Source: Opitutus sp. GAS368
GTDB lineage: Bacteria > Verrucomicrobiota > Verrucomicrobiia > Opitutales > Opitutaceae
Assembly: GCA_945861645.1 (NCBI GenBank)
Contig: CAMAVZ010000055.1
Location: 1-11,102 of the forward strand
DNA length: 11,102 bases
Direction: 5' to 3'
In this document: positions 1,233-10,963 of the stretch, piece after piece
Position numbering within the stretch: position 1 is the stretch's first letter
Layout: every line of letters starts with the position of its first letter
The notes under the pieces: model-generated
Databases searched by the model: none
What the model was told of the DNA's origin: nothing
The model's input: the letters and a program-made list of their open reading frames with translations, nothing else
Position numbers and translations under genes: made by a program

Positions 1233-1991
1233 CTAAGGGACCGCCCGCCGAGGGCCCGCGGCAAATTTCCGTAGATACTTCAAGGCCACGGCAAAATCAT
1301 TCGGTAGCGGCGCCGCCAAAGTAAATTTTGTCCGACTGAGTGGGTGCGTAAAAGTCAACTCACTCGCGTGCAGGGCAAGGTGCGTGATCAAGGCTTTCTC
1401 ATCCGCGCGGCCTTTGTACCCGCGCTTTAACGCAGAAAGCAGCAGCAAGGTTTCCGTTCCATAAAGCCGATCATTCAAAATGGGCGTACCCTGCTCCGCT
1501 AAATGCAGGCGCATTTGGTGCGGGCGACTGGTTTGGGGTCGACACTCAACGTAGGCAAAACTCACCCGTCCGACGGGGGCCGGAAATTTTTCGAGCACGG
1601 TAAATTCCGTCAAACTGATTTGGCCGTGTTTCTTCACTACACACATGCGCCCGGGCCGCCCTTCATCTTCCTTCATCACAAGCTCAACGGTGAATTCATC
1701 GTTGAGTGGCACGCCTACCGTAAGCACCTGATAAATTTTTCCCACGGTCTTGGACTGAAACTGCCCGCTCAAGAAATCGAGGGCTAATTTATTTTTGGCA
1801 AAAAGCACCAAGCCACTCGTATCAGCATCGAGTCGATGCACCGTCGCCACCTCCGCGCCCCGATGGGCCCGGACTAGCTCAAGAAGATTTTCTTCCCCGG
1901 GGGCCCGCCGATCGGGCGCAATGAGCATGGCGCTGGGCTTGTCGAAAGCGATTAAGGCATCGTCTTCAAAAATGATCAGCGGCAGCGGCAT
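1233..1991 (-). CDS. RluA-family RNA pseudouridine synthase (no S4 domain), ~252 aa
   Basis: IIFEDDALIAFDKPSAM (motif I), VHRLDADTSGLVLFAK (catalytic Asp motif II), KIY, RPHQMRLH, GTPILNDRLYG and LALHASELTFTHP. The start is placed at ATG 1991 (MPLPLIIFED); the 44-codon upstream extension to 2123 in the ORF track has no family features. Confidence 0.93.
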   Translation of the reverse strand: MPLPLIIFEDDALIAFDKPSAMLIAPDRRAPGEENLLELVRAHRGAEVATVHRLDADTSGLVLFAKNKLALDFLSGQFQSKTVGKIYQVLTVGVPLNDEFTVELVMKEDEGRPGRMCVVKKHGQISLTEFTVLEKFPAPVGRVSFAYVECRPQTSRPHQMRLHLAEQGTPILNDRLYGTETLLLLSALKRGYKGRADEKALITHLALHASELTFTHPLSRTKFTLAAPLPNDFAVALKYLRKFAAGPRRAVP

Positions 1992-2060
1992 AGGGTGCTT
2001 TTTTACCGGGGAAGCCCTCGGCGCAATCCAATACGACGAATAGGTAACGCCAAGGTTAAG

Positions 2061-2096
2061 CTTCGATGACAAAGAGAAATTCTCTTTGTGACGAAG
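2061..2096. promoter_or_regulatory. Inverted repeat, putative transcription-factor operator in the divergent rluA-like/hydrolase intergenic region
   Basis: ACAAAGAGAA(2069-2078)-A-TTCTCTTTGT(2080-2089) is a perfect 10-bp inverted repeat with a 1-nt spacer, flanked by CTTCG(2061-2065)/CGAAG(2092-2096). Confidence 0.55.
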
Positions 2097-2128
2097 GCCC
2101 GCGAGATTGAACGATAACGGCATCCCTC

Positions 2129-3223
2129 ATGCCCCCATTAAATTTTAGTCCCATGCTATCATTGGTGGCGCAGCTCCGCCACAATCCGGCCGCGCCACTG
2201 CGGATGTGGTTGCGCACTACCGATCATAAAATTCGCCCCCCCAACGCTCAGCCCCATCGACCCCGCATGCAATCTCGCCAAGCCGCGGTCCTCGCGAGCG
2301 GGCTCGCTCGGCCGCAGCAGCAGGCGCAGATTTTATCTGAACCTGCCATGGGCGCACAACCGACCATCGTCGTAGGCGGGTTTGTCCCCGACGCGATGGA
2401 TGCCCTTTATCTCCTCCGCGGAAGTTTGCGGCGGCAAGGCAGCCTTTACACCCTGAATCATCCCCCCGCGGGTTTCTCGACAGATTTATTTCTAGCGCAG
2501 CTCGCTGATCTCATTGAGGAAGTAACCGCCGCCCACCATCGACCGCCGGTCGTGATTGGCATAAGTTTTGGCGGGGGACTGGTGTTAGAATTACTGCGGC
2601 GGGCCACGGCGCATGAGACGGCTCCGGCCTTGGCGGGACTCGTCCTGATCAGTCCGGTGGCCTGCGTGGCTGATCTGCTTGATCCCACTGCGCCCAAGGC
2701 CACCACCCTACTGGGCCGCGTCATCAAACCATATGTTGAGGTCGAAGGTCCCGCGGATGGGGTCATCATCGAGCGTTCTCGCGTCATCTTTTTGAAAATG
2801 TTTGAAGCCGGCGCGCAAAATCGCGCGGCCCTTGGTCTGCTGCTCACGCGCCAAGAAACCCAGCGATTGCGCGCCGCGGTCCTGGCAACGATCAATGCCA
2901 TCACCCCCACCGGCGTGCTCGAACGCGTGCGGGCCCTCCGCGAATTTTCCCTACCTAGTGAAACCCGCTGTCTCAGCCGGACGCCCACGCTGATTCTCTA
3001 CGCAGAGAAAGAAAGTGCGGTGCTGGTGGATAATTCGCCGACGGAACAAATCTTGCGCCAGCAGACGCTAAAATGTTTTCCCCTCGGGCACTGTCTGACG
3101 GTACGAAATACCCCTGAAAATCCCGTCCAGCACGCTTCGCTGATTTTCCACGCGCAAAACTTTGAACCATTGCTTAGTAGCTTTTATCGCCAGATTAAAC
3201 CGATCCAATATCGGGCCGCCTGA
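2129..3223 (+). CDS. Alpha/beta-fold hydrolase (serine hydrolase); start may instead be 2153 or 2267
   Basis: Nucleophile elbow PVVIGISFGG (G-x-S-x-G), oxyanion segment IVVGGF, LAGLVLISP strand, PTLILYAEKE (acid position) and VQHASLIF (His position). Confidence 0.88.
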   Translation: MPPLNFSPMLSLVAQLRHNPAAPLRMWLRTTDHKIRPPNAQPHRPRMQSRQAAVLASGLARPQQQAQILSEPAMGAQPTIVVGGFVPDAMDALYLLRGSLRRQGSLYTLNHPPAGFSTDLFLAQLADLIEEVTAAHHRPPVVIGISFGGGLVLELLRRATAHETAPALAGLVLISPVACVADLLDPTAPKATTLLGRVIKPYVEVEGPADGVIIERSRVIFLKMFEAGAQNRAALGLLLTRQETQRLRAAVLATINAITPTGVLERVRALREFSLPSETRCLSRTPTLILYAEKESAVLVDNSPTEQILRQQTLKCFPLGHCLTVRNTPENPVQHASLIFHAQNFEPLLSSFYRQIKPIQYRAA

Positions 3224-3228
3224 GGAGG
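3223..3228 (+). promoter_or_regulatory. Shine-Dalgarno sequence overlapping the hydrolase stop codon (possible translational coupling to the first GH3 gene)
   Basis: TGAGGAGGCCTAATG: AGGAGG at 3223-3228 shares the last base of the TGA stop, and the next ATG is at 3233. Confidence 0.6.
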
Positions 3229-3232
3229 CCTA

Positions 3233-4855
3233 ATGCCGAGCGATCCGACCATCCTGCGCCCCGCGCCCCTACGGCTCCCGGCGGTCGCGCGCGCTTGTCT
3301 CAACCTTATTAGCGCGCCGCTGACCAGCCATACCGCGCGCCGCCTGCGTCGCCTCGGTAACGGGGTTGGCGCCCAAGAGACAATTTATCAATCGCTCGTC
3401 ACCACGCTAGCCCGACCCTCCTTCGGCCGCGTGGCTGGGCTGGAGCCCCATTTGCCCTATCGCACTTTCTGCGACCGCCTCCCCGCGCGCCACTATGAGG
3501 ATTTTTCGCCCTACATCGAACAGATGAAGCAGGGCCAAGCCGACGTGCTTTGCCCCGGCCGATGCGAATATTTCGCCGTCTCCTCGGGCACCACGGCAGG
3601 ACCCTCCAAATGGCTACCGGTCAACCGCGCCATGCTCGCTCACTTCCGGGAGGCGGGACTCGACACCCTATTTTATTATGCGCTGCGGGCAGGCAAAAAT
3701 TCCATATTCCACGGTCGCCATTTATTTCTAGGGGGTAGCAGCGCCCTGGTGGCGTTGCCCGAAATTCAACCGCCTATTTATTATGGCGATCTTAGCGGCA
3801 TCACTGCGCGCCATATCCCCGACTGGGTGGCCCGCTGGCTCTATGAACCAGGCCTCGCCATCGCGCATCTATCCGATTGGCCGGCTAAACTTGCCGCGAT
3901 TGCCCAGCGCACCTGGCGCGCTGATCTCACGATGGTGGCCGGGATCCCGAGTTGGTTGCTCGTGCTCGCCGCCACGATGCGCGCTCATGCCGAAGCCGTC
4001 TCCGGCCAGCGGCCGTCAACGCTCCAAGCTCTCTGGCCTAACCTGGAATGCCTCGTTCATGGCGGCGTGCCGGTCGCCCCATTCGCCGATGAATTGCGCG
4101 CGGCCTATGGCGCCAGCATCCAGTTCCATGAAGTTTATCCGGCGTCGGAAGCCTTTATCGCGATTCAAGACGCTGAGCCCGAAGCTGGCCTGCGCCTGCT
4201 GGTAGATCGCGGGATATTTTTTGAATTTCTACCCAGCGCCGATTACGACCCGAAAAACCCCGACGCGGCCGCCGGCCGAGCAGTGCCACTCGAAGGGGTA
4301 CAGATCAATGTTGATTATGTGCTGCTGCTCACCACCCCCGCTGGCTTGGTGCGCTATATTATTGGCGATCTGGTGCGCTTCATCAGTGTCTCCCCGCCTC
4401 GGCTGGTTTACGTCGGACGGACCAAACTCCAACTCAGTGCTTTCGGCGAACATGTCATTGAGAAAGAATTGACTGATGCCCTCACGGCGGTCTGCCGACA
4501 GCACAAGGTTCTCTTAACCAACTTTCATGTAGCCCCGCTTTTCCCTGATCCGGCCGCCCAGCGCCCGCTCGGCTGCCACGAATGGTGGATTGAACTGCGT
4601 CACCCGATCACGGCGATCCACGCTGAGCAATTTGCCGCTGATCTCGACCGCGCCCTCGCCGCCCGCAACGATGACTACGCCGCCAAACGCGCCGGGCAAG
4701 GTCTCACCCTGCCGCGCGTGCGGATGATGCCAGCAGGCAGCTTCGAGCAATGGCAGCGCCAATCTGGCAAATGGGGCGGCCAAAATAAAACTCCCCGGTG
4801 TCGTTCGGATCGACAAATCGCTGACCAACTCAAACTCTGCACCCCTTTAGCCTAG
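3233..4855 (+). CDS. GH3 auxin-responsive promoter family protein (acyl-acid amido synthetase-like adenylating enzyme), copy 1
   Basis: FAVSSGTTAGPSKWLPV (P-loop motif I), EVYPASEAFIA (motif II), GIFFEFLP, TTPAGLVRYIIGDLVRF (motif III), GRTKLQLSAFGEHV, HEWWIE, NDDYAAKR and C-terminal GKWGGQNKTPR, all typical of bacterial GH3 proteins. Confidence 0.93.
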   Translation: MPSDPTILRPAPLRLPAVARACLNLISAPLTSHTARRLRRLGNGVGAQETIYQSLVTTLARPSFGRVAGLEPHLPYRTFCDRLPARHYEDFSPYIEQMKQGQADVLCPGRCEYFAVSSGTTAGPSKWLPVNRAMLAHFREAGLDTLFYYALRAGKNSIFHGRHLFLGGSSALVALPEIQPPIYYGDLSGITARHIPDWVARWLYEPGLAIAHLSDWPAKLAAIAQRTWRADLTMVAGIPSWLLVLAATMRAHAEAVSGQRPSTLQALWPNLECLVHGGVPVAPFADELRAAYGASIQFHEVYPASEAFIAIQDAEPEAGLRLLVDRGIFFEFLPSADYDPKNPDAAAGRAVPLEGVQINVDYVLLLTTPAGLVRYIIGDLVRFISVSPPRLVYVGRTKLQLSAFGEHVIEKELTDALTAVCRQHKVLLTNFHVAPLFPDPAAQRPLGCHEWWIELRHPITAIHAEQFAADLDRALAARNDDYAAKRAGQGLTLPRVRMMPAGSFEQWQRQSGKWGGQNKTPRCRSDRQIADQLKLCTPLA

Positions 4856-4936
4856 AGGCCGGCGAGGGTGGCCCATTTTAGCGCCGCACCGTTTCGGATA
4901 TAGCCAAGCCGCCGGCACTCATTATACAGGGGAGTG

Positions 4937-6553
4937 ATGCCGCTCGTCCCGCGATTTTTAGTGAACTTCTGGGCGAGCTACCGCGTGACGCAATTCGTCC
5001 GCCGTCGGCCGTCACTCGGGCGGGGCGTCCGAGCGCAACAAGCGGCCTTCCGCCAACTCATGGAGCGCAGCGCGGGCACGGAGTTCGGCCGACTCCATAA
5101 TCTTACGGCGCAAACCACGTACCCGGAATTTTGTGAAAAAGTCCCACCGCGCCCGCATGATTATTTTGCGCCGCTCATCGCGCGCATGGCGGCCGGCGAG
5201 CCGGATGTCCTGATCCCGGGAAAATGTCAGTTGTTTGTCGAAACCGCCGGCACGACCAACTTCTCGCCCAAATTGCTACCGGTACCCGAGCCTATGCTCG
5301 CTCACTTCCAGCGAGGCCTGCGCGATGCGCTCTATCTTTATTCCGCCCGCGTCGGTCACGCGGGAGTTTTTCTTGGCCGCCACCTGCACGTCGGGGCGAG
5401 CACCGCGCTCGTCGAACAGCCGAGCCACCATCGCACCGGGCTCGATGGCCTCCTGAAGCTCTGCTTAACTCCTTGGGCCGAAGCTAAGCTTTATGCCCCG
5501 CCAGCAGCCATCGCCCAACTTCCGAGCGGGCCAGCGAAAATTGCCGCCACCCGACAAGCGATGCTCCCGCAGGATGTCACTCTGCTCGGCGGCAACCCTG
5601 CCGCCGTGAGCGCCCTCGCCCTCGCGGTGAGTCAATCGTCACCGCGCATTCCCCCGACGATTCAGCCCCTGACCTCCTTCTGGCCTAATCTAGAGTGCTG
5701 CGCCTTTACGGGAGCGGCCTTGGGCTTGCACGCTGAGCCGCTCCGCGCCGCCCTCGGCTCCACCGTCAACTTCCACGAAATTTATGCGGCGGCGGAGGGG
5801 ATCATTGCGGCGCAAGATGATGGCAGCCCCACGGGCCTAAGCTTACTGACCGATGCCGGTTTATTTTTTGAATTTATCCCCGCCCACCTCTTCAAAGACC
5901 ATCGACTGCCCGCCGCGAGCGCCGCCTGTCTGCCTTTAGCGCAAGTCGAAATCGATCGCGACTATGAACTTCTCGTGACCAGCCCCGCCGGTCTCTGCCG
6001 TTACGCTACGGGCGATATCGTGCGCTTTCTATCGCTTGATCCGCCGCGCTTACAATGGGCCGGACGGACGAGAGGCCAGCTCAACACCTTTGGCGAACGA
6101 GTCACTGAACAGGAAATCACCGACAGCCTCCTCGCGGTTTGCGCGCGCAACGGCTGGCGGCCAATTAATTTTCACGTAGCTCCGTCGAGTCACCGCATCG
6201 CGGCCGGCCAAATCATCAGCAGCCATGAGTGGTGGCTCGAGTTGGGTACGCCCACGATAAAAACCCCCACCGCGAATGGGCTCGCCCCCGAACTCGATGC
6301 GGAACTCGCGCGACGCAATCGCGAATACGCCGCCCACCGCACGGCCGGTCGCCTGTTCTTGCCCACCGTATGGCTCGTCATGCCGGGCGTGTTTGCCCAG
6401 TGGCGCCAGGCAAATGAGCAACCCGGTTTTGCGGGAAAAATACCGCCCTGCCGCCCCGATCGTCTCATCGCAGATCAACTCGCCGCCCTCACTCATTTCC
6501 ATCAAGCCCCCGTGCCTAGCTTCCCCCCGAGCCCGCCTTCATCCTCACCCTAA
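4937..6553 (+). CDS. GH3 auxin-responsive promoter family protein, copy 2 (divergent motifs); alternative GTG start at 4934
   Basis: FVETAGTTNFSPKLLPV, EIYAAAEGIIA, GLFFEFIP, TSPAGLCRYATGDIVRF, GRTRGQLNTFGERV, HEWWLE and NREYAAHR. It is colinear with copy 1 over its whole length. Confidence 0.9.
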   Translation: MPLVPRFLVNFWASYRVTQFVRRRPSLGRGVRAQQAAFRQLMERSAGTEFGRLHNLTAQTTYPEFCEKVPPRPHDYFAPLIARMAAGEPDVLIPGKCQLFVETAGTTNFSPKLLPVPEPMLAHFQRGLRDALYLYSARVGHAGVFLGRHLHVGASTALVEQPSHHRTGLDGLLKLCLTPWAEAKLYAPPAAIAQLPSGPAKIAATRQAMLPQDVTLLGGNPAAVSALALAVSQSSPRIPPTIQPLTSFWPNLECCAFTGAALGLHAEPLRAALGSTVNFHEIYAAAEGIIAAQDDGSPTGLSLLTDAGLFFEFIPAHLFKDHRLPAASAACLPLAQVEIDRDYELLVTSPAGLCRYATGDIVRFLSLDPPRLQWAGRTRGQLNTFGERVTEQEITDSLLAVCARNGWRPINFHVAPSSHRIAAGQIISSHEWWLELGTPTIKTPTANGLAPELDAELARRNREYAAHRTAGRLFLPTVWLVMPGVFAQWRQANEQPGFAGKIPPCRPDRLIADQLAALTHFHQAPVPSFPPSPPSSSP

Positions 6554-6582: not shown

Positions 6583-7677
6583 TTACGCAGGCAAATTGTG
6601 CTGCAGAAACCGCAGGAAGTTGCCGTGCATGATCCCCGCAATCTCACTGGGCTGATAACCCCGTTGCGCCAGAAGGAGCGGTACTTTCTGTAAATCCGCT
6701 ATCGTATCGAGATCCTCTGGCGATTGCTCATGACCAAAACCGCCATCCAAATCGGTGCCGATGCCAGCGTGCTGCGCATTGCCCGCGAGTTGGCAGACGT
6801 GATCGATCTGCTCCACCATGTGCGCCAATTTTACGCCCACATCACTGGGGCGAGTTTTATTTTTCACCCACCCCGGCACGAGCATCCACGCATCCAGCGC
6901 GGTCCCCAACACCCCACCCCGCTCGATCACGGTCTTAATTTGTGCATCATCGAATTGTCGCACCCCCGGCACCAAGGCCCGGCAATTTTGATGACTAGCC
7001 CAAAGCGGACCGTGAAAAAGTTTGGTCGCTTCCCAAAAGGCTTCATCGCTCAAATGCGTGCAGTCGAGAATCAGGCCTAAACGATTCATTGCTTTAATCA
7101 GCTCACGACCAGCCGAGCTCAGGGGGCCCGTGGCTTCCGTGCCGGGCGCATAGGTGCCGGGGCCGTAATGCGCCGGACCAATGGCGCGCAACCCTTGCGC
7201 GAAGGAACGTTCCAAATGTTGCAACGTCACCATCGAATCAGCGCCTTCTAAACTCAGGACATAACCAATCGGCCGCGGCGCGGCGGTGGCGGACTCCGCC
7301 CGAGCGTCTGGGGTGGGTTGCCACAATTTAATCATCTTCGCCAAGCCGGCCTGGTTGGTGATTGGAAACATTTCGCCGCGCTCTTCCATCGCCCGATACC
7401 AAGCCAACTGGCCCTGCGTTTGCGCCCATGCCTGTGACGGAGAATGCCAACCGGAGAGCGGATGGGTCGGTTTGACGTAACGCGCAATCTGCGTCGCCAC
7501 ACAAATTCCCACCTGACCACGGCGCATCTCCGGCAGACAAACCGTCCCATGACCACGGTCCGCCTTATCGTGCTGATCTTTTTCCCGCACGCGAATTTCA
7601 GCGATGGGGCGCGTCAGATCGCGATTCCACTCCAACGCGTTCATACTCAGATCAAGGTGGGCGTCAAAAATAAGCAT
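6583..7677 (-). CDS. Membrane dipeptidase family (peptidase M19, renal-dipeptidase-like) metallo-amidohydrolase
   Basis: IFDAHLD (H-x-D metal motif), LSLEGAD, ILDCTHLS, LWASHQN, RQFDD and HAGIGTDLDGG. No signal peptide is evident. Confidence 0.93.
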   Translation of the reverse strand: MLIFDAHLDLSMNALEWNRDLTRPIAEIRVREKDQHDKADRGHGTVCLPEMRRGQVGICVATQIARYVKPTHPLSGWHSPSQAWAQTQGQLAWYRAMEERGEMFPITNQAGLAKMIKLWQPTPDARAESATAAPRPIGYVLSLEGADSMVTLQHLERSFAQGLRAIGPAHYGPGTYAPGTEATGPLSSAGRELIKAMNRLGLILDCTHLSDEAFWEATKLFHGPLWASHQNCRALVPGVRQFDDAQIKTVIERGGVLGTALDAWMLVPGWVKNKTRPSDVGVKLAHMVEQIDHVCQLAGNAQHAGIGTDLDGGFGHEQSPEDLDTIADLQKVPLLLAQRGYQPSEIAGIMHGNFLRFLQHNLPA

Positions 7678-7728
7678 GGGGTAAGTAGGTGCTTTAAATA
7701 AAAGTGGATGCGCAGCCGCCGATGGCGT

Positions 7729-8835
7729 TCAAATCGTGATTTGTCGAGCGCGCCCGGTAATTGGCCAGCACTCCCCCGCCACGCCCGCGGTCACGGTCAC
7801 AGCCTGGGCATAGAGCGCGACGGTCGGACAAATATGCCAAGGAATCCCATACAAACAAGCGCCCACGGCAAAATCCGCCGCGTGCGCGGTGGCGACCACC
7901 AAATGCTCTTCGCTGTGCAACACGGCCGTGGCGTCGGGGAGATTGAAAAAAATTACGCGGGGATGAGGATTTTCCGCCGCAATCGCTTTATGACCTAAGT
8001 CCAACGTCAAATGATTCGCCTGCGGCTTGCTGACGACGCGCGTCAGCACCAAGGCCGCTTGGAGAAAAGCTAAATCCGGACAAAGTTGCGCGTAGCCCGC
8101 ATCCCAAAAAATACAGGTACCCGGACTGCATTCCACTTCGCCGCGGCGCGCATGAATCGGAAAAGTCGGGGTGCCACTGGCGATGATCCGCGGCACGGTG
8201 AAACCCTGCGCAATGAGCCTGTGACGCAATTCGTTGACGGGGCCGTAAGCCTCCGCCACCCGTTGCGTGCGCACCGCCAAATCGCGGTCATGAATATGAC
8301 CGTCGTAGGCGTGCAAGCCCGCGAACCGCAAGGCGGGTAAGCTCGCAATGAGTTGGGCCAACGCCAACGCCTCCGGCCCGGGTTTAATGCCGGTGCGCCC
8401 CATGCCACAGTCGAGGTCAATTAAAACCGCCAGCACCTGCTGCGCCGCGTTCGCCGCCTCGGCCAGCGCGCGCGTTGCAGCGGCATCATCAACAACGACC
8501 GCGAATTGGGTCGCAGGAAATTTCTCTATTAATTGCAGCCAACGCCCAAGATTAGGCCCGACGAGCGGATACGAGAGTAACACTTCCGCCGCACCGGCAC
8601 TGGCCGTAACTTCAGCTTCAGCAATCGTCGCGCATTTAAATTTCGTGATCCCCGCCGCGCACTGTAGCGCAATAATCGGGGCGAGCTTGTGCGTTTTCAT
8701 GTGCGGCCGCAAACGCTCAACCCCACCCGCCAACGCGATCATCCGGCGGATATTCTCGCGGACGCGATCAGGATAAACCAACAATGCCGGCGAGGCCACG
8801 GCCTCGTGATTAGTAAGCTCATACCAGTTTTTCAC
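7729..8835 (-). CDS. Fold-type III PLP-dependent enzyme, D-threonine aldolase / D-serine dehydratase (DSD1, D-TA) family, ~368 aa
   Basis: SPALLV, LRPHMKTHK (PLP lysine), CATIAEAE, DLDCGMGRTG, GLHAYDGH, SGTPTF, LDLGHKA, SEEH and PWHICPTV (metal-binding His/Cys). The start is placed at GTG 8835 (VKNWYEL); the ORF-track start at 8964 overlaps the RidA gene. Confidence 0.9.
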   Translation of the reverse strand: MKNWYELTNHEAVASPALLVYPDRVRENIRRMIALAGGVERLRPHMKTHKLAPIIALQCAAGITKFKCATIAEAEVTASAGAAEVLLSYPLVGPNLGRWLQLIEKFPATQFAVVVDDAAATRALAEAANAAQQVLAVLIDLDCGMGRTGIKPGPEALALAQLIASLPALRFAGLHAYDGHIHDRDLAVRTQRVAEAYGPVNELRHRLIAQGFTVPRIIASGTPTFPIHARRGEVECSPGTCIFWDAGYAQLCPDLAFLQAALVLTRVVSKPQANHLTLDLGHKAIAAENPHPRVIFFNLPDATAVLHSEEHLVVATAHAADFAVGACLYGIPWHICPTVALYAQAVTVTAGVAGECWPITGRARQITI

Positions 8836-8881
8836 AAGAGGGCGGAGCGTAGTTTTTAAAAAAGCAACGGCCGAGGCGGTT

Positions 8882-9343
8882 TTACCCCAGCTCAAACATC
8901 GCCTCAATCTCGACGGCAATATTACCCGGCAGCGAGCCCGCGCCGACCGCGCTGCGGGCGCCAATCCCTTGCTCGGGCCCGAACACTTCGACCATCAACT
9001 CACTGTAGCCATTAATCACTTGCGGATGCTGGGTGAAATCAGCGGCGGCGTTAACCAGGCCCAGTGTTTTTATGAGACGCTTAATCCGGTCCAACGAGCC
9101 CAGCTCCTGCCGCAAAGTAGCGAGCATGGTCAGACCCACTTGGCGGGCGGCAAATTTTCCCTGCGCGAGCGTCAAATCAGCTCCCACGCGGCCGGTCAGC
9201 ATCGTGCCATCAAGCTGCAACGGGCCGTGACCAGAAACATAAGCCAACGAACCCACGATGACCACCGGGCGGTAAATCCCGCCCAAAGGCGGTGGTGGAG
9301 GCAGCGCTAAATTTAAGGCAGCAAATCGTTTTTCGTGGCTCAT
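8882..9343 (-). CDS. RidA/YjgF/YER057c/UK114 family protein (imine/enamine deaminase-like)
   Basis: GIYRPVV, LAYVSGHGP, GRVGADL, VINGYSELMVEVFG, GARSAVG (conserved Arg), SLPGNIAVEIEA. Confidence 0.93.
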   Translation of the reverse strand: MSHEKRFAALNLALPPPPPLGGIYRPVVIVGSLAYVSGHGPLQLDGTMLTGRVGADLTLAQGKFAARQVGLTMLATLRQELGSLDRIKRLIKTLGLVNAAADFTQHPQVINGYSELMVEVFGPEQGIGARSAVGAGSLPGNIAVEIEAMFELG

Positions 9344-9415: not shown

Positions 9416-10828
9416 CTACTCAGATTTTTTGGTGCGAGATTTCTTGGCGGCCGTCTGCTTAGCATTCAGCCAAACTTGTCCCTTAGCATTGACGTTCAGC
9501 CAATAAATTTCTCCGCCGTGCTCCGCAAAAGTGGGTTTAGCCTTGGGCGAACTTGGCCGCTCGAGACCCGCTGTCACCAAGATCGCCTGTAATTGCGTTT
9601 CGGTTTTTTCTAATTTTTTCGCGAGATCTTTGACCAGTGCGGTGACGCCTTCGCCACGTTTCTTGGGCTCCATCATGAGCCGCATCGCGGTCAGAGTGTT
9701 CTCGGGCGGCAAGATTTTCCCCGCCGACCGCCTTTTAGTGGGCACAAAGGCATCGCGCGAATCTGCCGAACCGCGCGCCGACCCGGCGGCCCGGGGAGCA
9801 GCGACCACCGGGGCTGAAGCCGGCGCGTCTGCCTCGAGCGGTTTTTCTTCGGCATTAATCCAAATCTCTCCGCGCTGATTGCGGTTGAGGTAATATTCAA
9901 AATTTCCTTTCCGCGCCAACACGGGCTCGTCGCCTCCCGACAAACGCAGCCCAAATTCGCTCAGTTTTTCTAGTAGCTGCGCGTCATCGAGTTTCAACGC
10001 TTTGGTGAGATAAGGGAAACTACCGGACCAGCCGTGACCGCGCCGATTGCGCCGCATCATGGTACGAATGCGACCCAGGAAAGAATCCGATCCGGCAAAG
10101 ACCGCCTCAAGGGCCCGCGGCGGTTGTTCCGCGCGGGACTCCGGGCGCGGCGCGGCGAGACGCGCGGGTTGCTGTTCAGCGGGGACGGGGGTCGTCTGCG
10201 CGAGCTTAAATTTCTTATCCCGCGTATTTACCCAAATGCGGCCGTTTTGATCGCGCTCCAACCAATAGAGCGACCCGTCATAATCAACCACGTCACCTTT
10301 CGCTTCACCCGCGGCCGGCAGCGGTAAACCGCACTCTTCAAAAGCGGTGAGAACTTCCCGCGCATCCTGTTCAAATTTCTTGGCGAGAAAATCTAACTCT
10401 ACCGTGCGATCACCGTGCGAATTTTTTCGCAAAAATGGCTGCAAGGCTTCGAAAAGTGTCGGCAAATCTTCTTCACTGCCCTCGAGGTCATCAAAATTAC
10501 CGAGCCCCAAATCAATCGGGAGCGGGGCATTGACCGGACGCGTGGGCGGCAAGTCGTCGGCAAAAGAACGTTCATCCTTCCCGTCATCTTCCTCGGCGGG
10601 AATGGGTGGTGGCGTATAAGCGGGTTTCGCCGCGGCGGGCGGGAACCAATCCCGAGCGACAGGGCGACGAGCTAGGCCATTAAACACGAGTGGATTATCC
10701 GGCTTCGCGGTAAAATTGATGATCTCCCATTCATCCTTACCCAGCTGCCCGAGGTGTTGTTCGAGCAACTGCATGTTGGCAAAACCCAGCGGTCCACTGG
10801 AGATCAATTTATATTCCCAAGATGACAT
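9416..10828 (-). CDS. Hypothetical protein, ~470 aa: DUF4177-like N-terminal domain plus three tandem winged-helix-like repeats
   Basis: Long ORF. The N-terminal WEYKLIS...LEQHLGQLGKDEWEII matches the WEYK...LNxLGxxGWEL pattern of DUF4177. Three internal repeats end in Y[WY]Lxx[DN]xxGx[IV]W[VIL]N and are separated by Pro/Ala-rich linkers. The start is placed at ATG 10828 (MSSWEYK). Confidence 0.85.
   Translation of the reverse strand: MSSWEYKLISSGPLGFANMQLLEQHLGQLGKDEWEIINFTAKPDNPLVFNGLARRPVARDWFPPAAAKPAYTPPPIPAEEDDGKDERSFADDLPPTRPVNAPLPIDLGLGNFDDLEGSEEDLPTLFEALQPFLRKNSHGDRTVELDFLAKKFEQDAREVLTAFEECGLPLPAAGEAKGDVVDYDGSLYWLERDQNGRIWVNTRDKKFKLAQTTPVPAEQQPARLAAPRPESRAEQPPRALEAVFAGSDSFLGRIRTMMRRNRRGHGWSGSFPYLTKALKLDDAQLLEKLSEFGLRLSGGDEPVLARKGNFEYYLNRNQRGEIWINAEEKPLEADAPASAPVVAAPRAAGSARGSADSRDAFVPTKRRSAGKILPPENTLTAMRLMMEPKKRGEGVTALVKDLAKKLEKTETQLQAILVTAGLERPSSPKAKPTFAEHGGEIYWLNVNAKGQVWLNAKQTAAKKSRTKKSE
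9452..10462 (-). repeat. Three protein-level repeats of ~83 aa (10211-10462, 9842-10087, 9452-9703)
   Basis: R1 TLFEALQPFLRKNSHGDRTVELDFLAKKFEQDAREVLTAFEECGL...YWLERDQNGRIWVN; R2 SFLGRIRTMMRRNRRGHGWSGSFPYLTKALKLDDAQLLEKLSEFGL...YYLNRNQRGEIWIN; R3 NTLTAMRLMMEPKKRGEGVTALVKDLAKKLEKTETQLQAILVTAGL...YWLNVNAKGQVWLN. Confidence 0.85.
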
Positions 10829-10963
10829 ATGAACCCAACGCATCCTGCATCACCCCGCCTGACGCCAGCTTATATTTTTCGCCCACGCCCCGTAAATTCC
10901 TAGCCATAAAGAGTCACCCCGATCCTGCTTCCCAATTCCGCCAATTCTGTCCAAACACTGCGC

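Follow-up and report, generated by a model that had tools for sequence, protein, structure and literature searches.

The 11,102-nucleotide contig CAMAVZ010000055.1 of Opitutus sp. GAS368 (assembly GCA_945861645.1), analysed here over its whole length and referred to as the window, carries a gene pair for an alpha/beta-hydrolase-fold protein and a GH3-type ligase (GH3-1), followed by a second, altered GH3 gene (GH3-2). We propose that the pair is induced by PhoB and makes a phosphorus-free aminolipid, with the hydrolase-fold protein acting as an O-acyltransferase and GH3-2 standing outside the route, a reading to which we give a probability of about 0.55. The conserved unit is the pair of hydrolase and GH3-1, not the three genes, and by analogy its chemistry looks like a variant of OlsHI, that is, a divergent, phosphate-starvation-controlled version of a pathway described in 2025. 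The source genome is 2.3 Mb in size and 84% complete, and its titled relatives are Opitutaceae.

The three genes are co-directional open reading frames on the forward strand, at 2129–3223 (hydrolase, 364 aa), 3233–4855 (GH3-1, 540 aa) and 4934–6553 (GH3-2, 539 aa), although for the last of these relatives favour the ATG at 4937 over the start at 4934. The hydrolase and GH3-1 are separated by 9 nt, and a ribosome-binding site (AGGAGG, 3223–3228, + strand) takes its first A from the TGA stop codon of the hydrolase; 78 nt separate GH3-1 from GH3-2. This agrees with the first-pass annotation, which had described the same genes with a Shine-Dalgarno sequence over the stop and a second gap of about 80 nt, whereas a Pho-type repeat array upstream of the hydrolase (2033–2076) and the altered motifs of GH3-2 were missing from that description. 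Both GH3 proteins match PF03321, PF23571 and PF23572 above the Pfam gathering scores, are 41% identical to each other, and are the sole GH3 genes found by tblastn in the 84%-complete genome.

In 63 of 64 loci the gene that directly follows the hydrolase is a GH3 (in one case a deletion remnant), and the remaining locus ends at a contig edge. The proposal that all three genes form one module therefore holds for the hydrolase and GH3-1, which are coupled and conserved, but not for GH3-2. The survey of hydrolase-GH3-GH3 synteny suggested along with it found a tandem second GH3 at two hydrolase loci (52 of the 64 have room to show one) and the three-gene order in four of the 65 genomes of the window's genus. 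Within these 65 genomes, GH3-2 has a match in 46, a GH3-1-type gene occurs in 6 and the hydrolase in 7 (one of them a fragment). At 36 of 40 fetched GH3-2 loci an rluA gene is directly adjacent, and neither the hydrolase nor GH3-1 is found beside it. A sample of 201 genomes from the family gave a GH3 match in 145, a hydrolase match in 81 and both in 80, which leaves 65 of the 145 GH3-positive genomes with no hydrolase match. A true three-gene pathway, in which GH3-2 would be an active second ligase for another substrate or a required partner of GH3-1, could draw on the recurrence of the tandem order in four genomes and on the purifying selection and clade-specific conserved residues of GH3-2 described below. 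We consider it very unlikely in view of the GH3-2 loci that stand apart from the pair, the single GH3 at most hydrolase loci, the lack of a Pho-type box before GH3-2 in a matrix scan, and the different recent histories of the pair and GH3-2 (synonymous divergence, dS, of 0.12–0.15 versus 0.56).

According to the 2025 report (PMC12493201), OlsH of Singulisphaera acidiphila joins a free fatty acid to ornithine with ATP, and OlsI, an alpha/beta hydrolase, adds the second acyl chain as an O-acyltransferase to yield ornithine lipid; a Ser115Ala exchange abolished the activity of OlsH, whereas Ser293Ala only modulated it. With this work, bacterial GH3 proteins are no longer largely uncharacterised, as the first-pass annotation had held, and a 2026 review names Opitutales among the orders with OlsH homologues (PMC12971839). 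The best NCBIfam match of both GH3 proteins in the window is the OlsH model NF052613, at 363.8 bits for GH3-1 and 189.4 bits for GH3-2, under its cut-off of 620 bits; a planctomycete-type olsI-olsG-olsH locus (L095) that served as positive control passed the cut-offs for both OlsH (868.7) and OlsI (424.6). Identity to the OlsH of this locus is 35% for GH3-1 and 28% for GH3-2. GH3-1 keeps all three nucleotide-binding motifs of OlsH, with Ser118 (the equivalent of OlsH Ser115) and Ser305 present, and 97 of the 147 near-invariant columns of hydrolase-linked GH3 proteins agree with a planctomycete OlsH. On its Pfam and NCBIfam matches and its motifs, GH3-1 (+ strand) thus reads as an intact, OlsH-like GH3 acyl-acid amido synthetase. 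Neither GH3-1 nor the hydrolase has a hydrophobic stretch above 2.0, as expected of soluble proteins.

The OlsHI(G) system of S. acidiphila shares with the window a GH3 ligase with the same nucleotide-binding motifs, an operon, and an upstream hydrolase-fold gene with a Ser-acid-His triad. It differs from the window in that the hydrolase here is of another family, with Glu as the predicted acid, in that olsG, the N-methyltransferase gene located between olsI and olsH in planctomycetes, is missing here, and in that a Pho-type box and an extra, eroded GH3 are present here; the available part of PMC12493201 mentions no such box. In other bacteria, ornithine-lipid genes are under PhoB control (PMC12971839). 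The OlsBA and OlsF synthases resemble the pair in the product class and PhoB control proposed for it, but are unrelated enzymes that use acyl-acyl carrier protein.

The array upstream of the pair consists of four 11-bp direct-repeat units with the core GTnAC (2033–2076, + strand) and ends 53 nt before the hydrolase start, and GTnAC repeats with 11-bp spacing also occur in the hydrolase upstream regions of relatives. A matrix was seeded with the GTnAC core and trained on the upstream regions of 64 relatives outside the window's lineage; scores above 10 were obtained for 59 of the 64 training regions, 0.6% of shuffles and 3 of 86 hydrolase-less loci. The window site scores 19.7 (match at 2044) and ranks fifth in its genome, where the first three ranks are held by the promoter of porin-pstS-pstC-pstA-pstB-phoU, by phoB-phoR, and by a TonB receptor gene followed by phytase. 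Tandem 11-bp arrays of this kind are PhoB sites, and such repeats, a trait of the Pho regulon, are common to the window site and the pst and phoBR promoters. We infer that PhoB would induce the hydrolase and GH3-1 through 2033–2076, the box being visible in the sequence and its binding predicted. The matrix may also serve as a candidate Pho box for Opitutaceae with a small regulon (G000:C63:1392; C51:3188, 12087; L201, L202), which would include a TonB receptor with a ParB-like/phytase fusion protein. A near-perfect 21-bp inverted repeat (2068–2088), confined to close relatives, overlies the last array unit and may be a second operator or chance. A scan with the sigma-70 consensus returned two sites against 1.4 expected, none of them in the spacers.

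The hydrolase (2129–3223, + strand) matches PF12146 (E 6e-8) and PF12697 over their cut-offs, and its model (predicted local distance difference test score of 82) has an alpha/beta-hydrolase fold with Z of about 22 to esterases and lipases, the closest structural neighbours being esterases and monoglyceride lipases. Ser146, Glu293, Glu295 and His335 are invariant in 50 of 50 aligned relatives, and conservation and position point to Ser146-Glu295-His335 as the probable catalytic triad; among 21 further representatives with identity down to 25%, the His is kept in all and the Ser in 20. By cluster labels of the Atlas, the wider family spans Verrucomicrobiota and Thermodesulfobacteriota, and no relatives were found in viral contigs, plasmids or 274 Verrucomicrobiota genomes of other families. 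The protein has in common with OlsI the fold, the predicted nucleophile-acid-His triad and an operon with a GH3 gene, yet judged by sequence it is not an OlsI orthologue: none of 50 family members matches the OlsI model NF052614 (cut-off 385 bits) at E up to 1, BLASTP against the L095 OlsI detects no likeness, and a profile comparison gives a probability of 0.9% (with an OlsI profile of two sequences). The proposed acyltransferase activity consequently rests on fold, gene order and analogy. Against sequences of solved structures, one weak match was obtained with the single protein and none with a profile, and a complex prediction for the hydrolase with GH3-1 scored 0.00, a value that speaks neither for nor against a complex.

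The roles that the first-pass annotation listed for the hydrolase left out O-acyl transfer, the option with a precedent. One possibility is that the hydrolase acts first, as a phospholipase, lipase or thioesterase that frees a fatty acid for GH3-1, with any second acylation carried out by another enzyme and the same Pho-induced aminolipid as purpose. In E. coli cells OlsH showed no activity, probably because the free fatty acid that it requires was lacking (PMC12493201), the structural neighbours of the hydrolase are esterases and monoglyceride lipases, and fatty-acid supply would explain the Pho box and the erosion of GH3 after hydrolase loss equally well. For such a second acylation, however, the 84%-complete genome offers no OlsI or OlsB/OlsF family match, and PF13444 (OlsB-type) was not found in it. 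A mono-acyl amino acid is, moreover, a poor bilayer lipid. OlsI, the sole hydrolase partner of a bacterial GH3 known to have been tested, is an O-acyltransferase (PMC12493201). We regard the fatty-acid-releasing role as less likely, though still a serious alternative.

In the preferred O-acyltransferase reading, PhoB would switch on the hydrolase and GH3-1 under phosphate starvation, and GH3-1 would use ATP/Mg to adenylate a free (3-hydroxy) fatty acid and couple it, by analogy with OlsH, to ornithine or another amino acid to give a lyso-aminolipid. The hydrolase-fold protein would add the second acyl chain through an acyl-serine intermediate, as modelled on OlsI, which is the least certain step, and the phosphorus-free acyloxyacyl aminolipid would then replace phospholipid. 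An amino-lipid was one of the products listed in the first pass and is now the best reading. OlsB-like genes occur in 31 of 56 GH3-negative, 11 of 65 GH3-only and 11 of 81 pair-positive genomes (uncorrected for kinship), and their enrichment where GH3 is missing fits an aminolipid role.

Several observations weigh against this proposal. OlsB-like genes are no commoner in GH3-only than in pair genomes, a misfit with simple replacement. No gene lies between the hydrolase and GH3-1 where olsG would be expected, and tblastn with an OlsG-like protein finds none in the genome. The score of GH3-1 below the OlsH cut-off means that the amino acid may differ. A full-text literature search on the pathway returned only PMC12493201 and PMC12971839 (subscription papers and supplements may hold more), and no report of ornithine lipid in Opitutaceae was found in it. 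Ranks 4 and 6 of the matrix scan have no evident phosphate link, 136 sites in the genome lie above the threshold, and a strong box is present at only 1 of 12 olsB-like loci. The GH3 tree has weak deep branches, and a single clade of relocated cassettes appears in one tree but is absent from a smaller one. Finally, the product is a prediction from the genes.

Across the family, the condition of the GH3 active site follows the presence of the hydrolase. Five motifs are intact in all 66 hydrolase-linked GH3 proteins, in 4 of 44 other unlinked proteins and in none of the 41 proteins of the GH3-2 clade, where unlinked is defined by locus and some of those genomes have a pair elsewhere; the count leaves out six GH3-like proteins that are very distant, six that are partial or frameshifted, eight broken frames and duplicates. 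In a held-out test that took its columns from one half of the linked proteins and was matched for background divergence, motif retention was 0.996 for linked versus 0.866 for unlinked proteins, and among 12 independent pairs about 10 differed in the same direction and none in the opposite one (median p 0.002). The unlinked GH3 proteins are scattered in the tree, and well-supported branches force at least 12 hydrolase losses or changes, so that a single ancient duplication behind all hydrolase-less GH3s is not supported. Unlinked yet intact GH3s occur (L151, L167, L168), whereas eroded linked ones do not, which argues that hydrolase loss comes first; several of the unlinked genes are broken or have diverged to an extreme degree. 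Distant GH3-like subfamilies, unrelated to the rluA locus, are present in some Opitutaceae (L065, L066, L068, L074, L191, L192).

At 30 of 75 hydrolase-GH3 junctions a conserved element extends across the last hydrolase codons and the stop. Outside the GH3-2 clade, 28 of 48 unlinked loci have both of its halves at the original spacing, against no shuffles and none of 38 GH3-2 loci, and the window's own hydrolase/GH3-1 junction has no sign of this promoter-like element. The pattern suggests repeated deletion of the hydrolase that spared an internal GH3 promoter, the promoter role being deduced from sequence. The erosion of the GH3 active site after hydrolase loss supports a sequential pathway and points to a second role for GH3. 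We tentatively suggest, at less than even odds, that this second job is non-catalytic or differently catalytic and independent of both the hydrolase and Pho, that it was exposed by repeated deletion of the hydrolase and box, an internal promoter and motif erosion, with fresh import of the cassette, and that the window hydrolase represents a new lipid O-acyltransferase family. At locus L163 (G167:C329), an intact and an eroded GH3 stand in a tandem of independent origin and are sisters in the tree (support 0.99), so local duplication occurs in another genus too.

The same erosion bears on the parallel with plant hormone homeostasis that the first-pass annotation had drawn, in which the hydrolase would undo what GH3 makes, a conjugate of a small acid or signal. 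Plant GH3 enzymes (JAR1, GH3.12, OsGH3-8) have the same fold and motif order and are the best solved-structure matches, and the hydrolase fold allows amidase activity; they differ, however, in showing 15–18% identity in structural alignments and in acting on hormone substrates, with no evidence of a signalling role here. If the hydrolase merely reversed the reaction, its loss would be expected to leave selection on the ligase unchanged, but the motifs erode once the hydrolase is gone, and the Pho-type box and the closer likeness to OlsH than to the plant enzymes point to lipid remodelling. The parallel thus fits badly, and we consider it highly improbable.

GH3-2 (4937–6553, + strand) belongs to the resident, rluA-linked GH3 lineage and, on its motifs, fold and selection, is a candidate pseudoenzyme or re-purposed ligase. 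In GH3-2, Ala occupies the positions of the two serines that were mutated in OlsH, and the three pocket motifs common to GH3-1 and OlsH are replaced; at the Ser118 position its clade has Ala in 40 of 41 proteins, Thr in one and Ser in none. Glu300, Glu306, Glu331, Asp379, Arg374, Tyr482 and Arg486 are invariant in the clade, Lys519 is kept in 38 and Lys126 in 28 of 41, and an acid at position 188 (41/41) is a conserved residue of the clade's own. The fold is intact, with plant GH3 structures as the first matches of the model. The ratio of nonsynonymous to synonymous substitution (dN/dS) is 0.11–0.20 in eight close pairs of the clade, similar to the 0.06–0.20 of intact pair genes, and GH3-2 is under purifying selection. 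Full-length matches occur in 45 of the 65 genus genomes at 53–92% identity.

These values count against GH3-2 being a functionless gene awaiting deletion, a fate to which the 19 of 65 genomes with no match, the broken or extremely diverged state of several unlinked copies and the relaxed P-loop residues (Lys126 above) would be suited, and we find slow decay unlikely. A non-catalytic role has about an even chance in our view, and a changed substrate is somewhat less probable. Other adenylating enzymes accept non-serine residues in this loop, so that inactivity of GH3-2 is unproven; the literature search gave nothing usable on GH3 pseudoenzymes or a P-loop mutant of JAR1 (subscription papers may hold more). 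The spacer before GH3-2 (4856–4936, + strand), which lacks a Pho-type box, is kept in relative G250 even though the hydrolase and GH3-1 are lost there. It contains hexamers recognised by eye at 4901–4906 and 4923–4928 that may form a promoter of its own, both of which the consensus scan misses.

We suggest that GH3-2 is the ancestral rluA-linked copy, from which the hydrolase would have been deleted long ago with subsequent erosion of the catalytic motifs. It would persist because it serves another role that does not need the hydrolase, most probably a non-catalytic one or one on a changed substrate, and the intact pair would have been re-acquired as a cassette, here in front of the eroded copy. 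Origin of GH3-2 by local tandem duplication of GH3-1 was rejected, as the two lineages are not sisters (approximately unbiased test, p 0.011), and GH3-1 groups with pairs located away from rluA. Among genomes with the pair away from rluA, 12 of 17 have a second GH3, compared with 1 of the 33 that have it at rluA (a count over 50 of the 64 loci, one further genome having one gene split over two contigs), and of eight fetched second copies seven are rluA-adjacent and unlinked. Relative to L001, dS is 0.15 for the hydrolase and 0.12 for GH3-1, whereas five flanking genes have 0.39–0.70 (GH3-2: 0.56), and DNA identity is 0.93–0.98 over 1871–4870 versus 0.79–0.93 outside. The low dS of the pair and the block of high identity imply that the pair was exchanged recently between species as a block, probably by recombination. 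In G250, a stretch corresponding to about 2057–4797 was deleted at a 3-base microhomology, leaving the last GH3-1 codons, and in G205 an independent deletion runs from the hydrolase into GH3-2. GH3-2 thus mostly stays in place, whereas the pair comes and goes. The hydrolase and GH3 of L186 (G256:C46), from the same genus, lie about 2 kb apart and come from a different branch from the one that holds the window's pair, so that they were acquired independently.

The divergent rluA-family pseudouridine synthase gene (1233–1991, − strand) marks the ancestral locus and lies outside the proposed pathway. The close relatives L131 and L130 have about 1.8 kb of DNA between the E1 gene and rluA that is missing from the window (at 1121–1125). 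On the other side, Rid-family, pyridoxal-phosphate-dependent D-amino-acid aldolase/dehydratase-like and M19 dipeptidase genes (6583–9343, − strand) converge on GH3-2; at the loci examined, only the closest relatives share this set, an insertion that separates GH3-2 from the gene for a 475-aa protein (9416–10843, − strand). In most genomes of the genus, the latter gene is the immediate downstream neighbour of GH3-2. The 475-aa protein has no Pfam or NCBIfam match over cut-off and shows, by eye, three similar C-terminal repeats. Reads of one RNA run are spread evenly over the entire window, the divergent spacer included, so that they may derive from DNA, and the other three runs are sparse.

The pair adds candidate genes for phosphorus-free membrane lipids in Opitutaceae, a family common in fresh water and soil on which we found no such report, and its non-orthologous second enzyme and defined Pho-type box make lipid remodelling there testable. 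Because most of the hydrolase-less GH3s examined have altered motifs, counting OlsH homologues by identity overstates ornithine-lipid capacity. The family offers at least 12 repeats of a natural experiment: one enzyme is lost, and the active site of the partner then erodes, while the partner's gene is kept. If the more tentative suggestion of a second, hydrolase-independent GH3 job is true, the window would hold both halves of this experiment side by side, an intact pair and a GH3 pseudoenzyme, and its hydrolase would found a new family of lipid O-acyltransferases.

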